A stretch of DNA of 58,576 bases from Nanobdellota archaeon (GCA_030647965.1 JAUSIT010000038.1:1-58576); one strand, 5' to 3'; counted from the stretch's first letter, positions 8,833-34,100 are shown. Made by a program: numbers and translations. The notes: generated by a model not told the origin, from the sequence alone.

Positions 8833-9609
8833 ATGAAGTTTAGGCCTTGTATTGATTTGCATGAAGGAAAAGTTAAACAAATAGTGGGAAAAACACTAAA
8901 TAATAATGCAGAAAATTTAGTTGAAAATTTTATTTCTGATTATGATGCAGATTATTTTGCTGAAATATATAAAAAAGATAAATTAAATGATGGCCATGTT
9001 ATTATGCTTGGCTCAAGTAATGAAAAGCAGGCTTTGAAAGCACTACATTCTTATCCAAAAGGATTTCAAATTGGAGGAGGTATTAATCCGCAGAATGCAT
9101 TATATTTTATTAAAGAAGGAGCAAGCCATGTTATTGCAAGCTCTTATATTTTTGAAAATAATCAACTTTGCTTAAGAAAACTAGAAGAAATAGTTAATAG
9201 TGTTGGAAAATCTAATTTAGTTTTAGATTTAAGTTGTAAATTGAAAGATGAAAAGTATTTTGTGATGATAAATTCTTGGCAAAAACTCACTAATTTTGAA
9301 ATATCTTTAGAAAATCTTTCTTTATTATCTAAATATTGTGATGAATTTTTAATTCATGCAGTAGATGTTGAAGGACAATCCAAGGGCATTGAAATAAATC
9401 TGGTGAAAAAACTATCTGAATGGGTTAATCTACCTAATGTAAAAACTCCGGTAACTTATGCAGGAAGTATAAATTCTCTAGAAGATATTAAATTATTATA
9501 TAAATTAAGCAATGGGAAGCTAGATTTTAGTGTTGGAAGTAGTTTGGATATTTTTGGTGGAGATCTTCCTTATAAAAAATTAATTAATTTAAGAGATTTA
9601 ACTGTTTAA
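8833..9609 (+). CDS. hisA: ProFAR isomerase of the eukaryote/His6 type (HisA family)
   Basis: FRPCIDLHEGKVKQIVG, GGGIN, LVLDLSCK, NSWQKLT, EFLIHAVDVEG and VGSSLDIFGG are collinear with the yeast HIS6 sequence as I recall it. Confidence 0.75.
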   Translation: MKFRPCIDLHEGKVKQIVGKTLNNNAENLVENFISDYDADYFAEIYKKDKLNDGHVIMLGSSNEKQALKALHSYPKGFQIGGGINPQNALYFIKEGASHVIASSYIFENNQLCLRKLEEIVNSVGKSNLVLDLSCKLKDEKYFVMINSWQKLTNFEISLENLSLLSKYCDEFLIHAVDVEGQSKGIEINLVKKLSEWVNLPNVKTPVTYAGSINSLEDIKLLYKLSNGKLDFSVGSSLDIFGGDLPYKKLINLRDLTV

Positions 9610-9657
9610 ACAGCTGTTTAAAATAATTATAATAATTCTTATATAAAAAGTCAAGTA

Positions 9658-9846
9658 TTATTGCTTATCGAGAATAGCCTGTTTTTCTTGTTTAGTTTTC
9701 TCTTTAGCTTCAATTTCCTTTTCATAATATCTTACAAGATCTTCATTATTTTCTTCTTCTGCCTGTTTTTTCTTTTCTTCATGCAATTCGACTTGCTTTT
9801 GCAGTGAACTTATACCTTTTTTCAATCTCTTTTTTCTGTCCGTCAT
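9658..9846 (-). CDS. Small charged coiled-coil protein
   Basis: 62-aa K/E-rich ORF ending 3 nt after the upstream NTase gene; likely co-transcribed. Confidence 0.4.
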   Translation of the reverse strand: MTDRKKRLKKGISSLQKQVELHEEKKKQAEEENNEDLVRYYEKEIEAKEKTKQEKQAILDKQ

Positions 9847-9848
9847 TT

Positions 9849-10625
9849 TTATTCTTTAGATAACTTATCTATTTCTTTTTTTAAAAAATTTATGAGTTTC
9901 TCTCCAGTTTCTATAGGAATTTCATTTTTAATATTTTTATTATCTCTTACATACCTATAAACTTCATAAACTTTTTCATAATCTATTTCTATATTCTTTT
10001 TAATCCATGTTCTAAAAGAAGAATTTGAATATAATTTATTTTTTAAGAGACAGTTGATTATAAAAACTCCTCTTAATCTTAATATTGCAGAATAAAGAAC
10101 ACTAGTTGAAACTGTTTTTCCTGTTTTTCTGTCTAATTCCAGTAGATCTTCGCTGGATTTTACAGATATTTTTTTTGTAGATTCTATAAAAGAAGAAAAA
10201 TCTTTTAGAGCTATCTTTTTATTTTTATATTTGTCTAAATAATCTTCATTTATTATAGCTTTAGCTTCTTTAAATATAGAATACATTAGAATTGGGTTGG
10301 TTTTTATTGCAGATTCTATAGAATGCTCTGGAATAACTAAAAATTCAAAATTTCTCTTTTTTTCTATCTTAAATTTTTCTTTGGAGATAATTAAAACATC
10401 GATATCAGAGGTTTCAGAAGCTTCTGCTCTTGCATGTGAACCATAAATAAAAACTGCAATTATCTTATTAAGATGGGGGTAAAGAATTTCCATTATCTCT
10501 TCCTTTATGCTTTTCTTTTCTATTCTTATAATTAAGACTTTTTCATTCATCCATTCTTTTGGTGCAAAAATATGCGCCCCATTTCCTATTTCAGTAACCT
10601 TTCTTATTATCTGTTCTTGTTCCAT
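9849..10625 (-). CDS. Nucleotidyltransferase-domain protein
   Basis: Minimal NTase motif IYGSHARAEASETSDIDVLII (G-S...D-x-D). The N-terminus GNGAHIFAPKEW looks like an AbrB/SpoVT swapped hairpin. Confidence 0.65.
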   Translation of the reverse strand: MEQEQIIRKVTEIGNGAHIFAPKEWMNEKVLIIRIEKKSIKEEIMEILYPHLNKIIAVFIYGSHARAEASETSDIDVLIISKEKFKIEKKRNFEFLVIPEHSIESAIKTNPILMYSIFKEAKAIINEDYLDKYKNKKIALKDFSSFIESTKKISVKSSEDLLELDRKTGKTVSTSVLYSAILRLRGVFIINCLLKNKLYSNSSFRTWIKKNIEIDYEKVYEVYRYVRDNKNIKNEIPIETGEKLINFLKKEIDKLSKE

Positions 10626-10844
10626 GTATATACTAGGTATATACCACTATTTAAAGGTTTTTATTAAGATTTAAAGTGGCTTTATGCTCTTGAGAAAAAG
10701 AAATTTAATGGATAAAAAAAGAAAATACTAAATATTTTGACGAGATTTAGCTGTTTAAACAGCTGTTTAAGTGTTAAACATGGGCTGTTTAATAGGATAA
10801 TATATAACACTAATTCTTAAAAAGAGTTTTACCAATTAAATAAA

Positions 10845-11705
10845 ATGTATTTTCCATGGAATGATTATGAAGAAATAGCAAGTAATAGGAAAAATACTCT
10901 TCAAGTTTTTATAACAACAAGATGTAATTTGAAGTGTAATGGGTGTTTTGCAAAAAATGTAATGGGTGAAAAAGCAAAAGATATTTCTCTTAAAGAATAT
11001 TCTTTAGTAATTGATGATTTTCTTGAAAAAGATGGAAAACAAATAAATATTCTTGGTGGAGAGCCTTTACTTCATCCAAAAATAAGGGAAATTGTTCAAA
11101 TTAACCGAGATAAAAACATTAAAACAACTATTTATACAAATGGCTCTTATTTAAACAGGTTTAATGAAAAAGATTTTGAAAATGCAAAACTTCGGCTTTC
11201 CTTATATTGTAAATCAGGAAAAAATAAGAGTTTAGATTCAATGATTAAAACAGATTTTCCAATAGATGTCTGCTTTATGGTTTCAAGCAAAACTACAAAA
11301 AAAGAGCTTGTTGAAACAGCAGATGAACTTGAAAAAAATTACAATACTAATGTATTTTTTATTTCAAGTATAAGAGAATTAGACAATCCAAGAAAAGAAT
11401 TTTTTGATGATACTGAATTAAGTATGAATGTTTTAGCATATAAAGAGCTTGTTCATGAATTTTTGCAAGAATATAAAGGAAATATGGAAATACATATATC
11501 AAAAAGAGGAGTTTTTGAAAGCACAAAAACTATTGCAGGAAATAAATGTAAGTTTGCAAATTATTTTATTGGTGGCAAGATAATCCAATGCCCTTATGAT
11601 ACTATAAATCTGAAATTCCAGAAAGATTATTTGTTTGATACAAGAAACTGCCAGCAAAACAACAGCTGTTTAATGAGTAAGATTGTTGTTAAGAGAAAAA
11701 GTTAG
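10845..11705 (+). CDS. Radical SAM protein with a C-terminal Cys cluster
   Basis: CNLKCNGC (CxxxCxxC) near the N-terminus. C-terminal CKFANY...CPYD...CQQNNSC suggests an auxiliary-cluster domain. Confidence 0.7.
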   Translation: MYFPWNDYEEIASNRKNTLQVFITTRCNLKCNGCFAKNVMGEKAKDISLKEYSLVIDDFLEKDGKQINILGGEPLLHPKIREIVQINRDKNIKTTIYTNGSYLNRFNEKDFENAKLRLSLYCKSGKNKSLDSMIKTDFPIDVCFMVSSKTTKKELVETADELEKNYNTNVFFISSIRELDNPRKEFFDDTELSMNVLAYKELVHEFLQEYKGNMEIHISKRGVFESTKTIAGNKCKFANYFIGGKIIQCPYDTINLKFQKDYLFDTRNCQQNNSCLMSKIVVKRKS

Positions 11706-11712
11706 TGATTGT

Positions 11713-12021
11713 TTAAACAATAAACCGCTCGGGATTCTCTTCTCTAACTTTTTTTAAACATTTAATAAAAGTAGTCATTGTTCCATTACATTCTTCTTTT
11801 AAATATTCTTCAAATTCTTCTTTATTATTTGGAGCAAAATGATGGCAATCTAAACATAAAGTAATTAAATTTTCAAGTTCATCTTTTCCTTGAAAAGTTA
11901 AAGGAATAATGTGGTGGGCTTCTAAAAATTTTTCAGATTTATCTTGAATTTTACATTTTTGACAGGTAAAATCATCTCTTTCAAATGCTTTTTTTCTTAA
12001 GACACTATTTCTTTTCTTCAT
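11713..12021 (-). CDS. HNH endonuclease
   Basis: CQKC...AHHIIP...NLITLCLDCHH is an HNH motif with zinc-binding cysteine pairs. Overlaps the 3' end of the recombinase gene by 17 nt. Confidence 0.75.
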   Translation of the reverse strand: MKKRNSVLRKKAFERDDFTCQKCKIQDKSEKFLEAHHIIPLTFQGKDELENLITLCLDCHHFAPNNKEEFEEYLKEECNGTMTTFIKCLKKVREENPERFIV

Positions 12022-12853
12022 TTTTCATTAAATTATCTAAGGGGGATGAAACTTTTTTCATTTCTTCTGATGAAATATGGGTATAAATTTGAGTTGTTGA
12101 AAGGTCTGCATGGCCTAATAATTCCTGAATCATTCTTATATCTGTTCCTGATTCTAATAAGTGAGTTGCAAAGGAATGTCTTAGTGTATGAGGATGAACA
12201 GATTTTTTTATTCCTGCTTTTTGCGCTACGTTTTGAATAATCTTTTGCATGTTTCTTGAAGATAATTTTCCATTTGGGCCTGTGAAAAGATATTCTTGAT
12301 TGTTTTGTTTTTGTAATTCTGCTTGTTCTTTTAAATTATCTGCCAAGAAATTAGGAATATTAAAATTCCTATCTTTTTTTCCTTTAGCCTGCCTTACATG
12401 ACCTATTTTTTCATCAAAATCCATATCCCTCATTTTTAAATTAATTAATTCTGAAACTCTAAAACCACATGCATAAATTAAAGAGAGCATTAACTTGCTT
12501 TTTTTATTTACGGCCGACTCAAGCAGTTTTCTGACTTCGTCTTTAGATAAAACAACAGGTATTTTTTTCTCTCGTTTTGGTCTTTTTATTCCTGCAGTTA
12601 TATCTTTGTTTAAGAGGTTAGAATAGGCATATTTTACAGCAGCAAGAAACAAGATAGAAGACATAGAAGATTTTTCTGCTAATTTTTCTGCCATGAAAAG
12701 CTTAATATCGTCTTGAGTTATCTCTTCAGGATTTTTCTTGGAAAAATCAATAAGTTTAGAGTTAGAAGAAAGATAGTTTCTAATAGTATGGGGGGAGTTT
12801 TTAGAGATTTTTAGTTCTGTTTCGATTTTTTTTAAGAAAACCTCTTTTTCCAT
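12005..12853 (-). CDS. Tyrosine recombinase, XerA/XerC/XerD-like
   Basis: GFRVSEL...HPHTLRHSFATHLLESGTDIRMIQELLGHADLSTTQIYTH carries the R-H-R-Y catalytic signature. 282 aa, Xer-sized. Confidence 0.85.
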   Translation of the reverse strand: MEKEVFLKKIETELKISKNSPHTIRNYLSSNSKLIDFSKKNPEEITQDDIKLFMAEKLAEKSSMSSILFLAAVKYAYSNLLNKDITAGIKRPKREKKIPVVLSKDEVRKLLESAVNKKSKLMLSLIYACGFRVSELINLKMRDMDFDEKIGHVRQAKGKKDRNFNIPNFLADNLKEQAELQKQNNQEYLFTGPNGKLSSRNMQKIIQNVAQKAGIKKSVHPHTLRHSFATHLLESGTDIRMIQELLGHADLSTTQIYTHISSEEMKKVSSPLDNLMKNEEKK

Positions 12854-12907
12854 GATTTTGATTGTGCGAACTTGTTTAAAAATCTAATGTAATAATTGTA
12901 AAACCAG

Positions 12908-13399
12908 TTAATAGCTTCCTTTAATATCTGTCCTTAATTTCTTTTCTTGTGGGTTAAATCCTTTTTCTCTAAGAAGATTAAACATCTCTTCTTTAAATTG
13001 AAGATTATGAAGCATTTGATGATGATTTGGACATAAGCCTATCAAATTATCTTGAGAATTATTTTTTCTATTTTGATCAAGATGATGTAAATCGACTACT
13101 TTATCAAATCCACAAATAACACATTTTTCTGTGATTTTTTTATAGATTTCATAATCTAAACCATAAAGTTGCATTTGATTTCTAGCTTTTTGATAGTCTA
13201 AAAAATAAGTAGTATTATAACATCCCCCACATAACCCTTTACTTTTTAAAAACATTAATCTTTGACATCTTTTACAAACTTTCTTTTTTCTAGGCCATTT
13301 AAATTTTCTATAACAATTATGACAAATTTCTCCAGTAAATCGATTGTTTTCTTTTCCGCATTTTGGACAAACTTTCCCCTGTAATAATTTTATGGACAT
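12908..13399 (-). CDS. Zinc-finger / HNH nuclease-like protein
   Basis: Several CxxC pairs, then CVICG...DLHHLDQNRKNNSQDNLIGLCPNHHQMLH (HNH pattern). Confidence 0.6.
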   Translation of the reverse strand: MSIKLLQGKVCPKCGKENNRFTGEICHNCYRKFKWPRKKKVCKRCQRLMFLKSKGLCGGCYNTTYFLDYQKARNQMQLYGLDYEIYKKITEKCVICGFDKVVDLHHLDQNRKNNSQDNLIGLCPNHHQMLHNLQFKEEMFNLLREKGFNPQEKKLRTDIKGSY

Positions 13400-13503
13400 A
13401 ACATAATCAGGTACCTGAAGTATATAAATCTTTTGATGACAAAAATGTAACTTTTAAGTAGGTACCCGATAAATTTAAATAGTTAAAAGTTTTTAATCTA
13501 ATT

Positions 13504-13671
13504 ATGAAACTACAAAAACAAAAATCAGATTATAAAAGAGGCTACTCCAAATATGTAGTCGTAATTCCAGAAGATTTGATTAAGAAGGCTGAATTAAAAG
13601 AATCTGATGAATTAGTTGGAGAAGTTGAAAAACATAGAATAATACTTAAGAAAGTTGAAAAAATGGTCTAA
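13504..13671 (+). CDS. AbrB/SpoVT-like small DNA-binding protein (55 aa; not in the supplied ORF track)
   Basis: My translation is MKLQKQKSDYKRGYSKYVVVIPEDLIKKAELKESDELVGEVEKHRIILKKVEKMV. The YVVVIPEDLIKKAELKESD...V pattern resembles the AbrB/MazE looped-hinge-helix fold. Confidence 0.45.
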   Translation: MKLQKQKSDYKRGYSKYVVVIPEDLIKKAELKESDELVGEVEKHRIILKKVEKMV

Positions 13672-13762
13672 ATTGACTAAAACCCTGATTTCTAAACGTT
13701 CTGATAATATAGGTTATCAGAACCTTTTGGGTTATTGAGGGATTTTTGAGAGAAAAATAATA

Positions 13763-14080
13763 TTAATGTCTCCAAAATTGACTATCCCTACCTTTGTCAC
13801 ATTCGTCTTCTGTTTCTGTGCTCTTAGGTAAGCTTTGTGAAAGAACTTCTAAATCCTTAAGATGTTTTTCTAGAGGAATAGGAGTATAATCTAATGTTAA
13901 AAAATATGCTTTAAAATAAACAGTAGGAGGATTTCCTGTGATAATTATGCTCTCTTTTCCGTCAGGTTGATTATTTAAAGGAGTATATTTATTACCTCTT
14001 GAATCTACAAAAGTTCTTCCTTTAATTCCGCCATTTAAAAGATAATATGCTAAATCTTTAGTTAAAGAAGTTTCTGACAT
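13763..14080 (-). CDS. QSxPKST-family small protein, paralog 1 (tail type RDSxF-W/Y-RH)
   Basis: Shares SQSLPKST and the C-terminal tail TEDE..GRDSQFWRH with paralog 3. The N-terminal part is unrelated to the other paralogs. Confidence 0.55.
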   Translation of the reverse strand: MSETSLTKDLAYYLLNGGIKGRTFVDSRGNKYTPLNNQPDGKESIIITGNPPTVYFKAYFLTLDYTPIPLEKHLKDLEVLSQSLPKSTETEDECDKGRDSQFWRH

Positions 14081-14123
14081 ATTTTAAATTAATAAATAGT
14101 ATTTTTAAAGATTATTGTGATTT

Positions 14124-14468
14124 TTAGGCAAAAGGTTTATTTGGATTGCTTGGACCATAAGGATCATTAAAAACAGTTAGTGGTTCAATTGTGCTCTTAG
14201 GTAAGCTTTGTGCAGAAACCTCTAACCCTGATTGTGTTTTTTCAATTTCTTGAATCTCTAAATCAGTAAGACGCTCATAACCAGCTAATTTATCATATCC
14301 TAAGATAATTGTTTCTCTATTATATTTATTATCTTTATTATCTTCTAAAACAAGTACATTAAAACCATGATCATGAATCTCTAAAACTTTTATAATCTTG
14401 AAAGAATGTTTCTTTTGATAATAATTTCCTTTAACTGCATTCGATATATCTTCATATATATTTGTCAT
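14124..14468 (-). CDS. QSxPKST-family small protein, paralog 2 (tail type DPYG)
   Basis: AQSLPKST, then ..FNDPYGPSNP, similar to the paralog 4 tail. Confidence 0.55.
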   Translation of the reverse strand: MTNIYEDISNAVKGNYYQKKHSFKIIKVLEIHDHGFNVLVLEDNKDNKYNRETIILGYDKLAGYERLTDLEIQEIEKTQSGLEVSAQSLPKSTIEPLTVFNDPYGPSNPNKPFA

Positions 14469-14519
14469 GTTATTTTTTAATTAACTTGATTTTTAAATAT
14501 TATTGTGATTTAACATTAA

Positions 14520-14747
14520 TTAATGTCTATAAAATATACTATCTCTTCCTTCTCCACCATACACTTCATCTTCTGTATCTGTGCTCTTAGGTGAGCTTTG
14601 TGCAAGAGGTATATCTTCATAGTGATCTTTGATTAAAACTTCTTGAGGGGTTTTTTCTCCTGAATATCTTATTAACATTTTAATTTCTTCAGGATTGTCA
14701 TTTTTAAAATCAGAAAAACAATGTGCCACCCACACTTTGATTGGCAC
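14520..14747 (-). CDS. QSxPKST-family small protein, paralog 3; probably the 3' part of a gene interrupted by a repeat insertion
   Basis: AQSSPKSTDTEDEVYGGEGRDSIFYRH. The first 11 codons (MPIKVWVAHCF) are encoded by repeat sequence 14714-14747. Confidence 0.45.
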   Translation of the reverse strand: MPIKVWVAHCFSDFKNDNPEEIKMLIRYSGEKTPQEVLIKDHYEDIPLAQSSPKSTDTEDEVYGGEGRDSIFYRH

Positions 14748-14825
14748 TTGTTTTTGGGATGCTCCGAAATTAAAACCAGTAAATTACAACCCAATTCTAA
14801 AGAATTAAGTTTTAATTTCAGACAT
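14714..14825 (-). repeat. HP-A composite repeat: foot hairpin plus second hairpin with a T-run
   Basis: Minus strand reads ATGTCTGAAATTAAAAC...GGTTTTAATTTCGGAGCATCCCAAAAACAAGTGCC...GGCACATTGTTTTT. Homologous to 48989-49114 and 53292-53456. Confidence 0.7.
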
Positions 14826-14934
14826 AACCAATAACCTGATATTGAGCACCATCAAAAATACTATCTATAAACTTTTGATGAATAATAGAATTAATTCCTT
14901 GGTTTTTTATAATATCTTGTAAATTGTCTGTCAT
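14818..14934 (-). pseudogene. 38-codon ORF, probably the 5' part of interrupted paralog 3
   Basis: My translation is MTDNLQDIIKNQGINSIIHQKFIDSIFDGAQYQVIGYV, stopping inside the repeat foot. Conceptual removal of 14714-14825 joins it in frame to 14520-14713. Confidence 0.4.
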
Positions 14935-14942
14935 TTTGATTT

Positions 14943-15458
14943 TTAGTATTTTTTCTCTATTCTTGGGCCATAATCCCTATCTTTTGAATGAGAAGGAACT
15001 TTAGGTCCTATAAATGTTTGATTAGATTCTTCAGATATTTCTAAGTTTAAAGTGGGATTAGAATTTTCAAGGGCTTTTAATAATGATTCAGGATTATATT
15101 CATTAGGGATTCCTAAGTTTAATGTTGACCCATGATTAATAGCATAAGGATCGTCTGCAACAGTAAATGATTTATATGATTTTTCTGTGCTCTTAGGTGA
15201 GCTTTGTTCAGGCCCCAATACTAATTCTGTTAAACCTTGTTCCATCCAGTTAGCTAATTTATGAAGTTCAGAGATCTTTTCTTCTGGATTTTTAATTGAA
15301 ATAAACCTCTTATCATAAAATCCATTCTTGACTATTGGATAAGTTGTTCCATTAGGTTTATGAAGTATAAAATTATTATCTTGTGTTTCCCCTTTATAAA
15401 TTACTATTTCCTCCTGTGGAGTATCAAATTTATAAAAACCTGGTTTGTCTATGGCCAT
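14943..15458 (-). CDS. QSxPKST-family small protein, paralog 4 (long tail, DPYA)
   Basis: EQSSPKST, then ..ADDPYAINHG. The promoter-like ATCACAATAATCTTTAAA box upstream is shared with paralogs 1-3. Confidence 0.55.
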   Translation of the reverse strand: MAIDKPGFYKFDTPQEEIVIYKGETQDNNFILHKPNGTTYPIVKNGFYDKRFISIKNPEEKISELHKLANWMEQGLTELVLGPEQSSPKSTEKSYKSFTVADDPYAINHGSTLNLGIPNEYNPESLLKALENSNPTLNLEISEESNQTFIGPKVPSHSKDRDYGPRIEKKY

Positions 15459-15684
15459 AAATAATTTATTAATTTTGATTATTTAAAGATTATTGTGATT
15501 TAGGAGTGATTTAGGGAAATTTTTGAGTAATTTTTGCCTAGCGGCCTACTTTTTTTAGCAGTGTCTGGGGTTTTGTTCACTTTGGTTAGCAAAGTGCAAT
15601 GATAATAAAAATAAATATGAATAAAATATGAAAAGAAAAATAAAGAAAAGAAAAAAAGAAGTAGAAAAATAATTGCAATTATTT

Positions 15685-15882
15685 TTATCTATTAAATAAA
15701 GCCATTATTAAGCTTACAATTGCGCCTATAACTACAATCCAACCTGCAATTTGAGTTACAATTGTAGGAAGTATTGGGATAGTTAGTGTATTGTATATCA
15801 TTCCAAAGCCAACTGCAAGTGAAACTAAAATACCTGTTAGCCATACAACAATATTCAAAACTCCTGAATCTGCTTTTGCCAT
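15685..15882 (-). CDS. Small integral membrane protein (two TM helices)
   Basis: 65 aa, almost entirely hydrophobic. Strong GGAGGT Shine-Dalgarno-like sequence 7 nt upstream of the ATG. Confidence 0.55.
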   Translation of the reverse strand: MAKADSGVLNIVVWLTGILVSLAVGFGMIYNTLTIPILPTIVTQIAGWIVVIGAIVSLIMALFNR

Positions 15883-15917
15883 ATTTTACCTCCTTTTTTA
15901 ATTTATTTTTTATTAAT

Positions 15918-16208
15918 TTATTCTTTTTTAGTTCCTGGTGCAAAACTTAAAAGAGCAAGTGAAATAAAAAAAGAAAGCCCAAACACAGTAATATATGTTT
16001 TCAAAAGGCTTGGACTATAGCCCAAATATACTCTTTCAACATTTAGATCTAAAATTGAATCAGGATTTAGCGTACAAAAAGTCCATGCATAGTCTGGATT
16101 TGGAACAGAAGGTGCTGTTTGACATGGGATAAAACTTGAAAATAAAGATATTGAAAACACAGCTAGTGCAAAAAATAATGAAGCAATCACTCTATTTTTT
16201 AATTTCAT
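15918..16208 (-). CDS. Membrane/secreted protein with N- and C-terminal hydrophobic segments
   Basis: N-terminal signal-like VIASLFFALAVFSISLF and C-terminal FGLSFFISLALLSF. Confidence 0.45.
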   Translation of the reverse strand: MKLKNRVIASLFFALAVFSISLFSSFIPCQTAPSVPNPDYAWTFCTLNPDSILDLNVERVYLGYSPSLLKTYITVFGLSFFISLALLSFAPGTKKE

Positions 16209-16280
16209 ATTAACTCTTTTTAATAGACTTATTAAGATAGTGTAGTTTATAAATTTTTTGAGTTTTTCTCTGTTAAATCA

Positions 16281-16408
16281 AAAAAACAAAAGGGCACTAC
16301 CTCTTGAAAGGTATGGTTTGTAAAGCCCCTTTGTTTTTAGGATGATCAGAAATTAACGCAGTAAAGTTATATCTACATGATAAATAATGCAGTTTAATTT
16401 CTGACATC
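16281..16408 (-). repeat. HP-A composite repeat
   Basis: Reverse complement reads GATGTCAGAAATTAAACTGCAT...GCGTTAATTTCTGATCATCCTAAAAACAAAGGGGC...GCCCTTTTGTTTTTT. The foot hairpin is near-identical to 48989-49070. Confidence 0.65.
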
Positions 16409-16492
16409 AACTAAAAAATATAAAAAAAATCAAATAGATTATTCTTCGACATCAAGAACATTTAGCTTATTTTTTCTAATTTTCCTCACAAA

Positions 16493-16727
16493 CTTAAACA
16501 GGCTTAAACAGCCAGTGTGATTTTTTAAACAGGTGTGGCTTATTTTAGCTGTTTAAACAGCTGTTTAAACAAATTATCTTTTTTATTTATTAAAACTTAA
16601 ACAGCCAAAGTTTTATCGACTATAAATGTGCTGTTTAAACAGCAAACAGCTGTTTTAAACAACCTTAAAAAAGATAAAAAATAGGCCTTTTTTGAGGTTT
16701 AAAAAACTAGGGCTGTTTAAACAGCCG
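16493..16727. promoter_or_regulatory. Cluster of GCTGTTTAAACAGC palindromes and TTAAACAG half-sites upstream of a wHTH gene
   Basis: Perfect 14-bp palindromes at 16548-16561, 16630-16643 and 16712-16725, plus at least five half-sites. The same motif occurs at 9602-9621 and 10750-10770. Confidence 0.55.
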
Positions 16728-16764
16728 AAACATTTATAAATGAGAAAGATTGTAAATTATTAAG

Positions 16765-17376
16765 ATGTTTGGATTTTTCAAAAAAAACAAAGATGTAAGC
16801 AAATTAAAAGAAGAGGTATATCATTCTTTCAATTCTGTTAAAAAAGATATAAATAAAGTAGGTGAATGGGTTGCGCATTTCGACGCAAAACATAAAAATT
16901 TTGATAAAGAACTAGTTGAATTAAAAGACCAGCTTTATTACATTAGGGAAGATCTAAATGAGATAAAAGACTTTGTTTCTTTCTTTGGACCACAGTTAAC
17001 TAAACAGCCGTTTAAACAGGCACAAACAGGTAGGGATAAACAAACAGCTGTTCAAGCTGTTCAAACACCTGTCCAAACGGCTGTTCAAACAGGCATTTTA
17101 TCTGGTTTAACTGTTATGGAAAGGGCAATTGTGTTTGCTTTGTTAAACTCTGATGTAAAGCTAAGCTATGAAGATTTAGCAGCTGTTTTAGGGAAAGATA
17201 AGAGTACTATCAGGGGCCAGATAAATGGGATAAGACAAAAGAGTGAAGGCTTAATTGAAGAGTCAATTGAACCAAATGGTAAGAAAAGGATCTATATTCC
17301 AGAGAAAATGAAGGAATTTGTGCTCAAAAGTGTAAAAGTGAGAGTTAGACCTGATAAAAGGGCTAAAAAATACTAA
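16765..17376 (+). CDS. Coiled-coil / winged-helix DNA-binding protein
   Basis: N-terminal coiled coil, a QTAVQAVQTPVQTAVQT repeat linker, then C-terminal LTVMERAIVFALLNSDVKLSYEDLAAVLGKDKSTIRGQINGIRQK (wHTH-like). Confidence 0.55.
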   Translation: MFGFFKKNKDVSKLKEEVYHSFNSVKKDINKVGEWVAHFDAKHKNFDKELVELKDQLYYIREDLNEIKDFVSFFGPQLTKQPFKQAQTGRDKQTAVQAVQTPVQTAVQTGILSGLTVMERAIVFALLNSDVKLSYEDLAAVLGKDKSTIRGQINGIRQKSEGLIEESIEPNGKKRIYIPEKMKEFVLKSVKVRVRPDKRAKKY

Positions 17377-17597
17377 AAAACCAGTGTTTTTATTGGTTTT
17401 TAGGTCAAAAAGTGTAAAAGTGAGAGTTAAATAAAACAAACAGGTTATAAAAAATGAGAAAAATAAAAATTTTCAACAAAAAAGTGAGTGAAAAAATAAG
17501 AAATTATCTCTTAGCAAAAAAGAGAGAGATCAAAATAAAGAGATTTTAGCAAATTTTCAGCAAGAAAGTGAGGAATCAAAAAATCCAAAGGATTTTA

Positions 17598-17636
17598 GGA
17601 TGCTCAGAAATGTAATAAGAGAACATTTCTGACATC
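17598..17636 (-). repeat. HP-A hairpin (short form)
   Basis: Reverse complement GATGTCAGAAATGTTCTCTTATTACATTTCTGAGCATCC shows the conserved foot with a bulged G. Confidence 0.6.
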
Positions 17637-17832
17637 AAAATAAGGGAATTTTGATTCTTAAAAAAGCTGGAAAAAGGCTAAAAATCAAAAAAGAGAAAAA
17701 TAGTAAAATAGCGACGAGAAAGTTAAATAAAGTTAGATAGTGAAATAATGATAATCGGTGTGCCGGAAATCCTTAGTTTAGCTAAAATGTATTATAAATT
17801 TTTGAAAAATCAGAAATTTAAAGTAAAAATTA

Positions 17833-18636
17833 TTATAACTCTCTAAGCCTCATTATCGTCGATAAACTAGCAATTTTCTTAAGATCCGGGGAAATTTTTA
17901 AAGTAATAGTCTTATTGTTCTGTTTTAGCTTTAAAATAGGGATTCCTTTTTTCTCTAGCTTATTAACATAATCTCTTATTGAAGATTCGCTTAAATTAAG
18001 ATTATTTGCTATGATCTTATATGTTACTTCGCCTATATTTTGCTCTTCTAGGCCATAAAGCGTTGAAAATATAAGCATTTCCTGAGGAGTTAGCTTTTTG
18101 AACTTGATTCTTATGCCTTTTTTAATATGATCAAGAGAATCTAGTATTTCTCTTGCTTTTTCAAAGTCATTTATATCTTTTGACGAGGAAGAATGTGAAC
18201 TAGATGTAGAAATAGGGGGTGAGATAATGGAATTACTTAAACTGATTAAAGAGGCCATATTTATAGGATTTTCTTGTATTTTTGAAGTAATTTGTGTCTG
18301 TTGGTTTGTCTGTTGGTTTGTCTGTTGGTTTGTTGGTTTGTCTGTTGGAACCCCCCTATTTCCTGTGGAAAGGAGCATATTTTGCTCTTCTAGGCTATTT
18401 AGGGAGTGTTGATGTGTTGGAATATGTGTTGGAGTGGAAATAGGGGGGTTGTTTTGAGGTATGGTTTGGGTTGGATGTGTTGGAGTCTGAATTATTGGTT
18501 GAACTAACTGTTTTTCTTTGATTTGTCTTAGATCTAATCTAATTTCAGATAAGTCTGTTTTTAAAAATTCTAACTCTTTTTTAAGATCAAATATATCTTC
18601 TTTTATTTTATCAAAAGCTTGTTTTATAGGATCCAT
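17833..18636 (-). CDS. Coiled-coil / winged-helix DNA-binding protein (same architecture as 16765-17376)
   Basis: N-terminal coiled coil, low-complexity TNQQTNQQTNQQ repeats, then C-terminal LTPQEMLIFSTLYGLEEQNIGEVTYKIIANNLNLSESSIRDYVNKLEKKG (wHTH-like). Confidence 0.55.
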   Translation of the reverse strand: MDPIKQAFDKIKEDIFDLKKELEFLKTDLSEIRLDLRQIKEKQLVQPIIQTPTHPTQTIPQNNPPISTPTHIPTHQHSLNSLEEQNMLLSTGNRGVPTDKPTNQQTNQQTNQQTQITSKIQENPINMASLISLSNSIISPPISTSSSHSSSSKDINDFEKAREILDSLDHIKKGIRIKFKKLTPQEMLIFSTLYGLEEQNIGEVTYKIIANNLNLSESSIRDYVNKLEKKGIPILKLKQNNKTITLKISPDLKKIASLSTIMRLREL

Positions 18637-18677
18637 AGAAAATTAAGAATCCCTTAATTTATAATCTTAATGATAGT

Positions 18678-18953
18678 TTATTGTATCTGTTGGTTTGAAT
18701 AAGCAGAGTGTACTTTATTTGAAAGTCTCCATCTTGTTCTTCTAGAATAAACTATTCCTTTTTCATTTTTATCTATTTTAATAACAAGATCTTTTTTTAA
18801 TAATTCTTCTAAAAGAGCTTTAATAAATTCTTCATCTCGTGCAAGTTCTTTTGCAATGTCTGATATAAAAATCTGTTTAGGAAATACTTGATATAAATAA
18901 AATAAAATTTGCTCTGAAATCTTATCTTTTTTTTCTTTACTTATAGTGGGCAT
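18678..18953 (-). CDS. Small winged-helix DNA-binding protein
   Basis: ISEQILFYLYQVFPKQIFISDIAKELARDEEFIKALLEELLKKDLV is a wHTH-like pattern. Confidence 0.5.
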   Translation of the reverse strand: MPTISKEKKDKISEQILFYLYQVFPKQIFISDIAKELARDEEFIKALLEELLKKDLVIKIDKNEKGIVYSRRTRWRLSNKVHSAYSNQQIQ

Positions 18954-26874: not shown

Positions 26875-27220
26875 TAACCCCTCACCCTATGGTTTCTTAT
26901 GGAAAAGATTTATAAAGGAATTTCAAAATTGAAAATGTTGAATTTTTATTTATAAATATATATATTATATATTATATATATTAATATATAATATAATATA
27001 ATAATATATAATTAAGTATCTATATTTTAATTTTTTAAATTTTTGTTAATTTTTTACGTCAGTATATTTAGTAAATTACTAATAATACTACTTTAATACA
27101 CTTATTTTTTAAAATAATATTCTAGATATGAAATAAGGGGGTGAGGGGTTGCTAAATATTTTTATTAGTTAAAATAAGTAAAAAAGAGCTATTTTAAGTT
27201 CCATATGAAATAAAGGTTAG
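26875..27220. other. Candidate replication origin (oriC): inverted ORB-like boxes flanking an AT-rich unwinding region
   Basis: 26875-26907 TAACCCCTCACCCTATGGTTTCTTATGG is an inverted match to 27125-27152 GATATGAAATAAGGGGGTGAGGGGTTGC. A mini-box CCATATGAAATAAAGG sits at 27201-27216. (TA)n-rich tract at 26941-27120. Directly upstream of orc1/cdc6. Confidence 0.6.
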
Positions 27221-27299: not shown

Positions 27300-28517
27300 A
27301 TGGTGATAGGACTAGATAAAATATTCAATTCTGCAATAAATAACACTTTATTTAAAAATAAAGAGGTTTTACAGACAAATTATACTCCTGAGTCAATACC
27401 TCATAGGGATAAACAAATAGAACAGATTGCAGGGATATTAGCTCCTTTATTAAGAGGTGAAAGATGTAGTAATTTATTTTTATATGGTAAAACTGGCACA
27501 GGAAAGACTCTTTCAATGCAATATGTTCAAAATGAATTATTAAGAAAAGCAAAAGAAATGGGATTAGAATTAAGAATAATTTATTTAAATTGTAAATTAA
27601 AAAAAGTTTCAGACACAGAATATCGGATTTTAGCTGCTTTAATAGGTAAATTAGGTAAAGAGGTTGCTGCAACAGGATTACCTACTGATCAAGTTTATTC
27701 TAAGTTTATTGAGATAATCGATGAAAAAAAACAATTGGTTGTTATTATTTTTGATGAAATTGATCAGGCTATTAAAAAAATTTCAGATAGTTTTTTATAT
27801 AATTTAACTAGGTTAAATTCAGAACTATCTAAATCTCAAATAAGTATTATAGGTATTTCTAATGATATTACTTTTTTAGAAGATATAGATCCTAGAGTAA
27901 GAAGTTCTTTAGGTGAAGAAGAACTTGTATTTCCTCCTTATAATGCATTACAATTACAAGATATATTAAATGAAAGATGTGCTATTTCTTTTAAAGAAAA
28001 TGCTGTTGATGCAGGAGTTATTGCAAAATGTGCTGCTTATGCTGCAAGAGAGCATGGGGATGCAAGAAGAGCTTTAGATTTATTAAGAATTGCAGGAGAA
28101 CTTTCTGAAAGAGAGGGAAATTCTAATGTTGGATTGAAATATATTGATTTAGCTAATGATAAAATGGAAAAAGACAAAATTTTAGATATTGTTGAAACTC
28201 AACCTAAACAATTTCAACTTGTTTTATATGCTATTTCAGAATTAACAAAATCTCAAAAAAATAATAAAGAATTAAATAAATTTTTTACAGGAGATGTTTA
28301 TGATGTTTATAGGGATATTTGCATTAAAACAAAAAATGAGTATTTAACTCAAAGAAGAATTTCTGATATTATTGCTGAAATGGATATGTTGGGTTTGATA
28401 AATGCTAAGGTTATTTCAAAAGGGAGACATGGTAGAACTAGAGAAATAAAATTTGCAATACCTATAGGTTTATTTGATAAAATTGATGCTATTTTAAAAG
28501 AATCTTTAGGTTTGTAA
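27300..28517 (+). CDS. cdc6: Orc1/Cdc6 replication initiator
   Basis: Walker A GKTGTGKT, Walker B IIFDEID, sensor region GDARRALDLL and a C-terminal winged helix. Confidence 0.9.
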   Translation: MVIGLDKIFNSAINNTLFKNKEVLQTNYTPESIPHRDKQIEQIAGILAPLLRGERCSNLFLYGKTGTGKTLSMQYVQNELLRKAKEMGLELRIIYLNCKLKKVSDTEYRILAALIGKLGKEVAATGLPTDQVYSKFIEIIDEKKQLVVIIFDEIDQAIKKISDSFLYNLTRLNSELSKSQISIIGISNDITFLEDIDPRVRSSLGEEELVFPPYNALQLQDILNERCAISFKENAVDAGVIAKCAAYAAREHGDARRALDLLRIAGELSEREGNSNVGLKYIDLANDKMEKDKILDIVETQPKQFQLVLYAISELTKSQKNNKELNKFFTGDVYDVYRDICIKTKNEYLTQRRISDIIAEMDMLGLINAKVISKGRHGRTREIKFAIPIGLFDKIDAILKESLGL

Positions 28518-31105: not shown

Positions 31106-34100
31106 ATGGAACAGTATTTCAATGAACTTGTAAAAGATGTAAGAAAAGAGTATGCTATTGCAGAATTAGCAAAGCAAAAAGGGCTTGACCCTGTTGATAA
31201 AGTCGAAATTCCTTTAGCAATGTCTCTTGCTGAAAAAGTAGTTGGTTTAATTTCTACTATTTATCCTCAGTTGGAAAATAGCGGGGTTGCAAAAAGAATA
31301 ATTGAATTAGAAAATGAATATGGGCAATTAGATACTGCTGTTTCATTTAAAATTGCAGAAGAAGTTGCAAAAGAAAAATTTTGTAAATTTAAAAGTTTAC
31401 TAGAAGCAATTGATGCAGGAATAAGGGTAGGATTTTCATATACTACTTTAGGTGTTGTTTCATCTCCTATTGAAGGATTTACAGGAATAAAATTAGGCAA
31501 AACAAAAAATGGAGAAGAGTATTTTATTGCTTCTTTTTCAGGACCTATAAGAAGTGCAGGAACCACTGCTTCTTGTGTTGTTTTAATGTTAATTGATTAT
31601 TTAAGAGAACTTTTTGGATATGCAAAATATGACCCTGATGAAAATGAAATAAAAAGATATGTTATTGAAAATTTTGATTATCATGAAAGAGTTAATAATT
31701 TACAGTATTTACCTACTGAAGAAGAAATTATTTTTTTAGCTAAGAATTTACCTATTCAAGTTTCAGGAGAGCCAACTGAAAAAAAAGAGGTTTCAAATTA
31801 TAAAGACTTGCCTAGAGTTGAAACTAATTGTATTAGGGGAGGAATGTGTTTATGTTTTTCAGAAGGTCTTGCACAAAAAGCGCAAAAAGGATTAAGATTA
31901 TGGAAAGCAACACAGGCAAAAGGTTTTCAGATGACTGGTTGGGAATTTTTAAGTGAATATTTAATTATGCATAAAAAAAGAGAAAAAGGAAGTACTGATG
32001 CATCTCCAACTTATATTAAAGATTTAGTTGCAGGAAGGCCGGTATTTGGGCATCCTTCTCGTTCAGGAGCATTTAGATTTAGATATGGGAGAAGTAGAGT
32101 ATGTGGATTTTCTGCAGTATCTATACATCCTGCAACAATGGCAATTTCAAATAATTTTTTATCAACAGGAACTCAATTAAAAATTGAAAAACCTACTAAA
32201 GGGTGTGTTGTTACTTCTTGTGATTCAATTGATGGACCTATTGTAAAATTAAAAAATGGAAGTGTAAAAAGGCTGTATGATTTTGAAGAGGCAAAAAAAT
32301 TATATAAAGAAACAGAAGAAATAATTTATTTTGGAGATATTTTATTTCCTTTAGGAGATGTAATTAATAGAAATTATGAATTAATAAAATCTGCTTATGT
32401 TGAAGAGTGGTGGGGATTGGAATTAAAGAAAAAATTTGAAGAAAAAGGAGAAATTTTTAATTTAGATGTTTTTAAAGTTAGTTTAAATGAAGCAATAGTA
32501 TTTTCTGAAAATTATAAAATTCCTTTATATCCTAAATATATTTATTATTGGAGCCAGATAAAAACAGAAGATTTTTTTTGGCTAATGGAATGGCTTCAAA
32601 ATGCAGAATGGAGAGAAAAATTAATATTACCTTATGAGAAATCTTCAAGAGATAAGTTTAAACAGGCAAAAAGAGCTTTGGAATTATTAGGAGTTGAGCA
32701 TGAAGTTATTTTTGATAATGTTATTATTAATGATGGGAAGGCATTTTTAATTAATTTAGGGATTGATTTTTTTGGTGAGAATTTTAAAGAAAGTGTGAAG
32801 AAAATTATTGAAGAAAATAAAGATAAAACCAGTGTTTTGGAGATTATTAATAATATTTCTAAATTTAAAATAAAAGATAAGGCAGGAGTTTTTATTGGAA
32901 CAAGAATGGGTAGGCCTGAAAAAGCTAAATTAAGAAAATTAATAGGAAGTCCTAATGTTTTATTTCCTATTGGGGAACAAGGGGGGAGATTTAGAAGTTT
33001 AAATGAAGCTGCTGAAATTGGTTTTATTAAAGGAAATTTTCCAATAAATTATTGTGAAACTTGTAAAAAAAATACTATCTATAGAACTTGTGAAAGTTGT
33101 GGAAATAAAACAAATAAGTTAAGAATATGTCCTGAATGCAGAAAAACTTTTGAAGGATTAGTTTGTCCTGAACATAATTTAGGAAAAGGTTTTGATAATC
33201 AGAGAATAGATAGCAAGTATTATCTTTCAAAAGCTTCTAAATTTTTAGAAGCAACAACTATTCCTGAATTAATAAAAGGAGTAAGAGAAACTTTTAGTGA
33301 AGATCATGATTTTGAGCATATTGAAAAAGGAATTTTAAGAGCAAAGTATAATTTATGTGTTAATAAAGATGGAACTATTAGATATGATGCAACAGAACTT
33401 CCTATAACTCATTTTAAACCTAAAGAAGTTGCAGTGGGTTTTGAAAAATTAAAAGAAATAGGTTATATTAAAGATATTTTTGATAAAGAATTAATTAGTG
33501 ATGAACAAATTTTAGAATTAAAACCTCATGATATTATTCTTCCTGCATGTCCTGAGACTAAGGATGAAAGGGGAGATAGTGTTTTTTTAAATATTGCTAA
33601 TTTTTTAGATGAATTACTTGAAAAATTTTACAAATTGCCAAAATATTATAATTTGAAAACAAAACAAGATTTAGTTGGGCAGTTAGTTGTTTGCATGGCT
33701 CCTCATAATTGTGCTGGGGTTATTGGGAGAATCATTGGATTTTCAAAAACCCAAGGATTATTGGCTTCTCCTTATATGCATGCTGCAATGAGAAGAGATT
33801 GCGTTTATCCTACTACAAATTTTGTTTATTCTGAAAACGGAGAAACAAAGATTTGTGAGATTGGTGATTATGTTGAAGAATTAATTAAGAATAATGCAAA
33901 AACAAAAATAATAGATTCTTATAATACTTTAAAAATTAATATTAATAAAGAAATTTATGCATTTGGAGTAAATCCTATAAGCAAAAAACTTACCAAGAAG
34001 AAAATAAAATATTTTATTAAAGGAATGCCTCCTGAAAAATGGGTTAAGATTAAAACGTGCAGTGGGAGGGAACAGATTATGACTCCCAGGCATAAATTTA

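Follow-up and report, generated by a model that had tools for sequence, protein, structure and literature searches.

A clade-wide DNA motif at the promoter of a winged-helix protein gene near the replication origin of DPANN archaea: a probable operator array beside XerA

Do short palindromic repeats that lie beside a recombinase gene and bracket blocks of other genes mark the ends of something mobile, or do they serve another purpose? The question is raised by a stretch of 58,576 nt from a Nanobdellota archaeon (GCA_030647965.1 JAUSIT010000038.1:1-58576; analysed at its full length and called the window below), in which a 20-mer, CTGTTTAAACAGCTGTTTAA, occurs identically at 9602-9621 (copy A), 10751-10770 (copy B) and 16549-16568 (copy C), as an earlier reading of the sequence (the original prediction) had reported. 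The copies delimit two blocks with the gene content described there: a 1.2-kb block with a nucleotidyltransferase gene and a small open reading frame (ORF), and a 5.8-kb block with a radical SAM gene, two HNH genes, a Xer-like recombinase gene, an AbrB-like ORF, a QSxPKST array and two membrane-protein genes. Three interpretations had been offered: att/dif-like ends of an integrated element, a cassette-like arrangement, and operator sites for adjacent winged helix-turn-helix (wHTH) proteins. Comparative data are needed before palindromes beside a Xer gene can be taken for the ends of mobile elements, and DPANN archaea either have not been cultured or are difficult to culture, so far as we are aware with almost nothing known of their gene regulation and chromosome organisation. 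Comparison with related genomes identifies the three 20-mers as the strongest, two-unit forms of a clade-wide predicted binding motif whose home is the promoter and 5′ part of the gene for one winged-helix protein, wHTH1. We consider it probable, if well short of certain, that the motif forms an operator or iteron array bound by this MarR/Lrs14-like protein, which would autoregulate its own gene and the divergent membrane-protein genes, with copies A and B as lineage-specific extras. The comparison thus defines a clade-wide DNA motif, a likely binder from an undescribed family and a fixed origin-side neighbourhood that runs from XerA to PolD; no published description of the wHTH1/motif locus was found in the literature.

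The features around copy C, on which this reading turns, are the following.

15685..16208, minus strand: two small membrane-protein genes, mem1 (15685-15882) and mem2 (15918-16208), divergent from the array and syntenic in relatives
16494..16725, no strand: main motif array, at least 11 half-sites, including site C (16544-16575) and the palindromes at 16630-16643 and 16712-16725
16726..16740, plus strand: B recognition element (BRE) and TATA box, CGAAACATTTATAAA, with the TATA centre about 28 nt before the ATG at 16765
16765..17376, plus strand: wHTH1, 203 aa: a long coiled-coil helix at the N-terminus, then a disordered KQ../VQT linker, then a winged helix of MarR/Lrs14-like type at the C-terminus; the proposed binder
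17000..17100, plus strand: in-gene continuation of the array, in which units such as AAACAGCCGTTTAAACAGG and GCTGTTCAAACAGG (TAA changed to CAA) encode KQPFKQ...VQTPVQTAVQT

Within the window the 20-mer has 6 matches at up to 3 mismatches against 0.04 expected, a count reached in 0 of 100 shuffles. The 9-mer TTAAACAGC is present in 16 copies, on both strands and all within 9602-16725, with 0 copies in the remaining ~51 kb of the window. Exact copies of the palindrome GCTGTTTAAACAGC lie at 10750, 16548, 16630 and 16712 (the last two being the additional palindromes that had been noted at 16630-16643 and 16712-16725), and a copy with 1 mismatch lies at 9601. We infer that the unit recognised is the half-site GSTGTTT, read AAACASC on the opposite strand: half-sites in a 12-bp register give rise to the palindromes GCTGTTTAAACAGC and AAACAGCTGTTT, and two units make up the 20-mer. 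The motif includes PmeI-like GTTTAAAC and PvuII-like CAGCTG palindromes. Its palindromes form modest hairpins only, and a search of 14600-17800 against Rfam matched no RNA family.

Where the motif lies in other genomes was assessed in two ways. First, the exact 20-mer was scanned against 185,579 species genomes and found at 19 loci, 17 of them in metagenome-assembled genomes of Pace-, Woese- or Nanoarchaeota (DPANN); a homologue of wHTH1 of about 50% identity adjoins the 20-mer at 13 of these 17, and a 49-68%-identical XerA homologue is additionally present at 7. Second, about 80 further loci were collected through a metagenome scan with the wHTH1 protein and contig look-ups, and these were not selected for the motif (unbiased loci). 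The region from -250 to -1 of the wHTH1 start holds 108 exact 9-mers across 77 non-redundant loci, and downstream there are essentially none. Across 64 unbiased loci the half-site GSTGTTT reaches 10.7/kb at -500..-1 and 3.7/kb at 0..+499, over a background of ~0.4/kb, and in the same set exact 9-mers occur at 0.079/kb farther upstream, on the xerA side (in a few genomes), and at 0.007/kb on the cdc6 side, which is the chance level given a rate of ~0.012/kb estimated from base composition. The position of the motif is kept across orthologous promoters (56-77 loci, wHTH1 identity 54-69%). The half-site array is universal in the unbiased loci, unlike the palindromic forms: the CAGCTG-centred palindrome AAACAGCTGTTT is found in 12 of 56 and TGTTTAAACA in 26 of 56.

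The array also has a consistent relation to the core promoter. In the window, about a dozen units occupy the wHTH1 promoter region over ~270 bp before the gene, and the final palindrome (16712-16725) abuts the BRE/TATA box; the distance from the TATA centre to the ATG implies a leaderless or near-leaderless mRNA. At 49 of 56 related loci a BRE/TATA element, GAAAnATTTATAAA, occupies -40..-21 of wHTH1 and has half-sites immediately to either side; related promoters also have a second TATA near -320, which serves the divergent mem2 gene. Forward half-sites outnumber reverse ones by 223 to 64 in these promoters, and the spacing between half-sites peaks at 12 bp and, less strongly, near 22 and 32 bp. 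The sites are thus concentrated at the promoter of a gene for a DNA-binding protein and abut core promoter elements, as is expected of an operator array. About 26 of 56 related promoters carry, near -160, a further palindrome, YCGNCGR, often TTATCGACGATAA; one of this type lies mid-array in the window (TTTTATCGACTATAAA at 16600-16625), and a second factor, for instance the neighbouring winged-helix proteins wHTH2 or wHTH3, may bind there.

The protein encoded behind this promoter comes from a family that numbers more than 2,100 proteins, has no Pfam model and is confined to DPANN. Its structural model has a helix over residues 3-73, a disordered linker and a confident winged helix at 110-190 (in AlphaFold, residues 79-108 are predicted disordered, with a predicted local distance difference test score below 50). 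The winged helix matches the MarR/MepR fold and Lrs14-type AbfR2 (6cmv), and wHTH1 homologues share an invariant STIRGQIN helix, the recognition helix. The linker, KQ(L/P)FKQ...VQTPVQTAVQTG, is near-invariant across 22 aligned homologues despite its predicted disorder, and its DNA consists of degenerate, stop-free variants of the motif (TGTYCAAACR). Codon usage in this segment is correspondingly unusual. Threonine is written ACA in 80% of cases in the linker against 41% in the rest of wHTH1 and 47% in other genes, and ACT in 5% against 47% and 31%; leucine is written CTG in 29% against 3% elsewhere. The CAA and ACA codons at Q100, T101, Q104, Q108 and T109 are 97-100% identical in 76 genes (for contrast, four different codons occur at T148 of the winged helix), and the linker exceeds other parts in its top-codon fraction (Mann-Whitney p = 0.004). 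Frozen synonymous codons indicate selection on the nucleotide string itself, and the locus is an unusually clear case of a predicted binding-site array that enters coding sequence and freezes both a peptide and its synonymous codons. The resemblance between intergenic GCTGTTTAAACA and coding GCTGTTCAAACA had raised the idea of a genetic code in which TAA reads as glutamine; this was dropped without a formal test, since table 11 gives normally terminated ORFs throughout the window, and at the positions concerned homologues have CAA and in no case an in-frame TAA.

A different box family begins where the wHTH1 gene ends. Four same-strand copies of AAGTGAG lie at 17336-17566, from the last wHTH1 codons (KSVKVRV) into the gap before wHTH2. 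In relatives the box reaches 9.7/kb at +500..+1000 of wHTH1, and a mirror arm made of its inverse, CTCACTT, lies ~2 kb upstream (-2500..-1750); this left arm is absent from the window.

Taken together, these results favour the last of the interpretations first offered, operator sites for the adjacent winged-helix protein, for which the comparative data (concentration at the promoter, overlap with BRE/TATA) provide support. Dimers of wHTH1, joined by the N-terminal helix, would load cooperatively along the array and compete at the BRE/TATA element with TATA-binding protein and transcription factor B, and this competition would set the expression of wHTH1 together with that of the divergent membrane-protein genes. 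The position and conservation of the motif, its overlap with the promoter, the codon freezing and the synteny are observed; wHTH1 as the binder, and repression as its effect, are inferred. There is precedent in Lrs14, which has a winged helix and coiled-coil dimerisation and binds its own promoter (PMC11841832 and references cited there). Autoregulated repressors of the Lrs14/MarR type (Sulfolobus Lrs14; PMC11841832) resemble wHTH1 in combining a winged helix with a coiled-coil helix and in having multiple sites around their own BRE/TATA. There are also clear differences: the coiled coil of wHTH1 is N-terminal, and a 30-residue disordered linker precedes the winged helix; its array is much larger (10-15 units, ~300 bp), consists mostly of direct repeats and extends into coding sequence; and its family lacks a Pfam model and is found in DPANN only. 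Protein and motif form a directly testable protein-DNA pair.

Copies A and B lie outside this promoter, in the following setting.

8833-9609: hisA-like ORF, whose TAA stop (9607-9609) is supplied from within copy A
9597..9625, no strand: satellite site A, double palindrome TTTAACTGTTTAAACAGCTGTTTAAAATA, between convergent 3′ ends; donates the hisA-like stop
9658..10625, minus strand: two-gene module of a nucleotidyltransferase (9849-10625) and a 62-aa coiled-coil gene (9658-9846)
10746..10795, no strand: satellite site B, the 20-mer followed by GTGTTAAACA and then GCTGTTTAA, in the divergent region between the nucleotidyltransferase gene (minus) and the radical SAM gene (plus)
10845..11705, plus strand: radical SAM gene, with homologues at unrelated loci that lack the motif

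The overlap of the first copy with the hisA stop codon is therefore as originally described. Copies A and B have 29 nt in common with one mismatch, GAGATTTA[A/G]CTGTTTAAACAGCTGTTTAA, and to judge from the comparison with relatives they are extra strong sites peculiar to this genome or lineage. Site B is directly upstream of a TATA-like box, ATAATATATAA, and fronts the promoters of both the radical SAM and the nucleotidyltransferase genes; site A has no obvious promoter. Three related half-sites had also been listed in this region, at 10779-10795, 11660-11675 and 11709-11720. The first contains a real copy (10784-10792) and the last (TTGTTTAAACAA) is a weak partial match. The middle one falls inside the radical SAM gene, where it encodes the conserved peptide NNSCLMS, which homologues write with other codons, and its resemblance to the motif is most likely a coding coincidence. 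With that in-gene half-site explained by its peptide, and with homologues elsewhere devoid of the motif, the radical SAM gene was rejected as a conserved member of a regulon.

The nucleotidyltransferase/62-aa module of the 1.2-kb block is movable, with four further copies in other genomes, all at unrelated loci; none of the four has the motif at either end. Module copies elsewhere share instead a palindrome of their own, GGTATATAC..GTATATAC, and a family of motif-flanked cassettes was ruled out on these grounds. The module's promoter palindrome, (G)GTATATAC-NN-AGTATATAC beside TTTAAATA, is kept in 5 of 5 genomes examined; it lies at 10622-10660 in the window and directly upstream of the nucleotidyltransferase gene in the four others (L103-L106), and suggests self-regulation by a pair that may be toxin-antitoxin-like. 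Some homologues are labelled "DUF2080 transposase-associated" in the sources.

In relatives, satellite sites are intergenic in 22 of 35 groups, 8 of these between divergent and 11 between tandem genes. Four genomes place a 20-mer at xerA: 14-40 nt upstream of the gene in L002 and L015, and inside it, as an exact copy, in L010 (1785-1804) and L018 (4862-4881). In the latter two the length of the gene is unchanged and FLxEELKxQ becomes LFKQLFK through the rare codons CTG and CAG, which looks like a replacement of a coding segment by the motif at the DNA level. A motif within xerA was ruled out as a general feature, with LFKQLFK confined to these two genomes and FLxEELKxQ in 33 other xerA genes.

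Beyond the array, the neighbourhood contains these features.

12005..12853, minus strand: XerA-type tyrosine recombinase, a syntenic housekeeping gene and not the integrase of an inserted element
12908..13399, minus strand: HNH2 (zinc ribbon and HNH), directly upstream of xerA in most relatives
17833..18953, minus strand: wHTH2 (17833-18636) and wHTH3 (18678-18953), syntenic; wHTH2 has the same coiled-coil/linker/winged-helix design
26876..27150, no strand: candidate oriC, inverted repeats like origin recognition boxes (ORB) and G-strings (26876-26910, 27116-27150) around a stretch of ~98% A+T

The recombinase is an XerA orthologue (5hxy, E = 2.8e-44; 4a8e, E = 1.2e-42). In ~60 related DPANN contigs the same gene order is kept: XerA(-), HNH2(-), a variable stretch, mem1(-), mem2(-), the array, wHTH1(+), wHTH2(-), wHTH3(-), sometimes Lhr and a phosphoesterase, PRC-barrel(-), Cdc6(+) and PolD DP1/DP2. 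The window follows it, with Cdc6 at 27300-28517 and then PolD DP1, an HD protein and DP2. Conserved order beside Cdc6 and oriC makes the 5.8-kb region origin-proximal core chromosome and not an insert. The view of this block as an integrated element or cassette with att/dif-like ends was abandoned accordingly: related genomes, which might have shown the block precisely absent at the repeat, instead keep xerA, HNH2, mem1, mem2 and wHTH1 in the same order beside Cdc6/PolD in dozens of loci. Identity with a viral or plasmid attP was likewise ruled out, the 20-mer being absent from 2.9 million viral contigs (IMG/VR). HNH1 (11713-12021) and HNH2 bracket xerA in one co-directional cluster, and HNH1 is kept in few relatives (L024, L099).

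The candidate oriC lies immediately upstream of cdc6, where the repeats AACCCCTCACCC... and ...GGGGGTGAGGGGTT stand on either side of some 200 bp rich in (TA)n; 21 of 29 relatives have a GAAA..GGGG element at -170..-245 of cdc6. The motif array is ~10 kb from this candidate origin and 10.5 kb from cdc6. It was ruled out as a replication origin itself, given the separate structure of ORB repeats and DNA unwinding element directly upstream of cdc6, which relatives keep.

Several observations weigh against an operator array bound by wHTH1. The exact 9-mer is in the promoter at only 34 of 64 unbiased loci, the others having variants such as GGTGTTT and TTGGACAG; site A, between convergent 3′ ends, has no obvious operator job; the strong double site at or inside xerA in four genomes hints at a link to the recombinase; and wHTH2, wHTH3 or XerA could be the binder in place of wHTH1. 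Finally, repeats that mostly run in one direction at roughly helical spacing, with a second box family (AAGTGAG) at the far side of the gene, resemble a simple operator less than they do a nucleoprotein array of architectural kind.

A second reading we regard as unlikely: the sites would be bound by wHTH1-3 mainly for an architectural role, as an origin-side, centromere-like complex or an SMC roadblock or domain boundary, with A and B as extra loading or bridging points. It would account for the constant place of the locus, ~4-10 kb from cdc6/oriC, across dozens of genomes, for the mostly one-directional repeats at 12/22/32-bp spacing, for the second box family that flanks the wHTH1 gene with its inverted arm ~2 kb upstream in relatives, and for satellites confined to the xerA side at the densities given above. 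TrmBL2, which has a winged helix and a coiled coil, builds an SMC boundary on dif-flanking DNA in Thermococcus (PMC11841832). Sites inside the binder's own gene, as here, are also known from some partition systems. Against this reading, no partition NTPase (nucleoside triphosphatase) and no SMC or kleisin gene was noted among the identified genes within ±10 kb, and the overlap of the array with a canonical promoter is explained by a plain autoregulator. In the plasmid systems ParR-parC and TubR-tubC, direct repeats spaced by about one helical turn surround the promoter of the binder gene, and TubR is a winged-helix protein. The motif array shares with them its iteron-like spacing and a winged-helix protein; it differs in that no partner NTPase gene was noted within the ±10 kb just mentioned and in being chromosomal and vertically inherited clade-wide.

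A broader form of the same idea, which we hold to be distinctly doubtful, would join the TGTTTAAACA-type array, the AAGTGAG boxes, the three winged-helix proteins and XerA into one clade-inherited origin-side nucleoprotein machine. The double palindromes might then be XerA cores or loading or roadblock sites for SMC or segregation, the wHTH proteins would be accessory, and selection on the array would dictate the linker sequence of its binder.

It is improbable, in our view, that the double palindromes are in the first place dif-like cores for XerA, of the form AGCTGTTTAAA-CAGCTG-TTTAAACAAAT or GCTGTTTAA-N8-TTAAACAGC, with the arrays and winged-helix proteins as accessories in the manner of cer/psi. 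A, B and C could then be extra sites through which the intervening segments might be inserted, deleted or inverted. The shape of a tyrosine-recombinase site that had been pointed out is real: the 28-mer of site C (16547-16574), AGCTGTTTAAA-CAGCTG-TTTAAACAAAT, has the 11-6-11 form with 9/11 arm complementarity, is the sole conserved non-coding inverted repeat of this form in 8-27.3 kb, and also fits TAA-N8-TTA, TAA(N6-8)TTA being a hallmark of archaeal dif (PMC11840125). Some archaea have xerA/dif modules, the haloarchaeal dif lies upstream of the xerA operon, and here xerA is syntenic and 2-6 kb away in nearly all loci; the 20-mers just upstream of or inside xerA fit the same idea, as does gene content that differs between genomes from wHTH1 to xerA and beyond xerA. 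Other observations count against a dif role. dif is single-copy, whereas the window has three exact copies and many partial ones within 7 kb, mostly as direct repeats; the site is not conserved as a unit, as the fractions for AAACAGCTGTTT and TGTTTAAACA above indicate and as does the 28-mer, found at ≤5 mismatches at 9 of 39 loci; and it stands ~10 kb from the predicted oriC, while published archaeal dif sites lie 122-180 degrees away. The assembled Logan contigs of the source run (which drop rare variants) contain no joints at 9602, 10751 or 16549; a few joints there have 20-23-nt sides, none touching the three 20-mers. The absence of the 20-mer from viral contigs and the presence of nucleotidyltransferase and radical SAM modules elsewhere without the motif point the same way.

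Repeated sites that bracket gene blocks and exploit Xer are familiar from the pdif modules of Acinetobacter. With these and with integrative mobile elements exploiting Xer (IMEX; PMC5357621) the locus shares repeated palindromes that bracket small gene blocks near a Xer gene; it differs in that the larger block is conserved core synteny, relatives of the smaller block lack the sites, and the assembled contigs hold no circular or empty forms. The archaeal XerA/dif systems of Pyrococcus abyssi, Thermoplasma acidophilum and Thermococcus kodakarensis (PMC2958812, PMC5357621, PMC11840125), compared by form and not base by base, are alike in the XerA orthologue, the 11-6-11 form and the TAA-N8-TTA core, and unlike in that the present motif is multi-copy, origin-adjacent and without a conserved 28-bp unit.

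Very improbable is an insertion scar, in which the 1.15-kb nucleotidyltransferase/62-aa module would have entered a pre-existing motif at the end of the hisA-like gene and left A and B behind as attL/attR-like duplications: A and B do match over 29 nt but for one base, the module is a self-contained pair at unrelated positions in other genomes and the hisA-like ORF terminates on a repeat-donated stop, but the module's four other copies have no motif at either end, the extra 8-9 matching bases are partly as expected from a degenerate third motif unit, and the source run's contigs show neither an excised nor an empty form (the closest available relative having a wHTH1 only 69% identical). An operator array at the promoter of wHTH1, with A and B as lineage-specific satellites, remains the preferred reading.

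Two minor features complete the description of the window. Between mem2 and the array, TTTTAGGATGATCAGAAAT...ATGATA...CTGACATC at 16335-16400 resembles the boxes of C/D-box small RNAs (C, C′, D) and has no Rfam match; the window has three such related copies, the other two with similar starts at 14752 and 17593. Within the PolD DP2 gene (31106-36064) lies an intein whose homing-endonuclease domain is of the LAGLIDADG type (Pfam Intein_splicing, LAGLIDADG_3).

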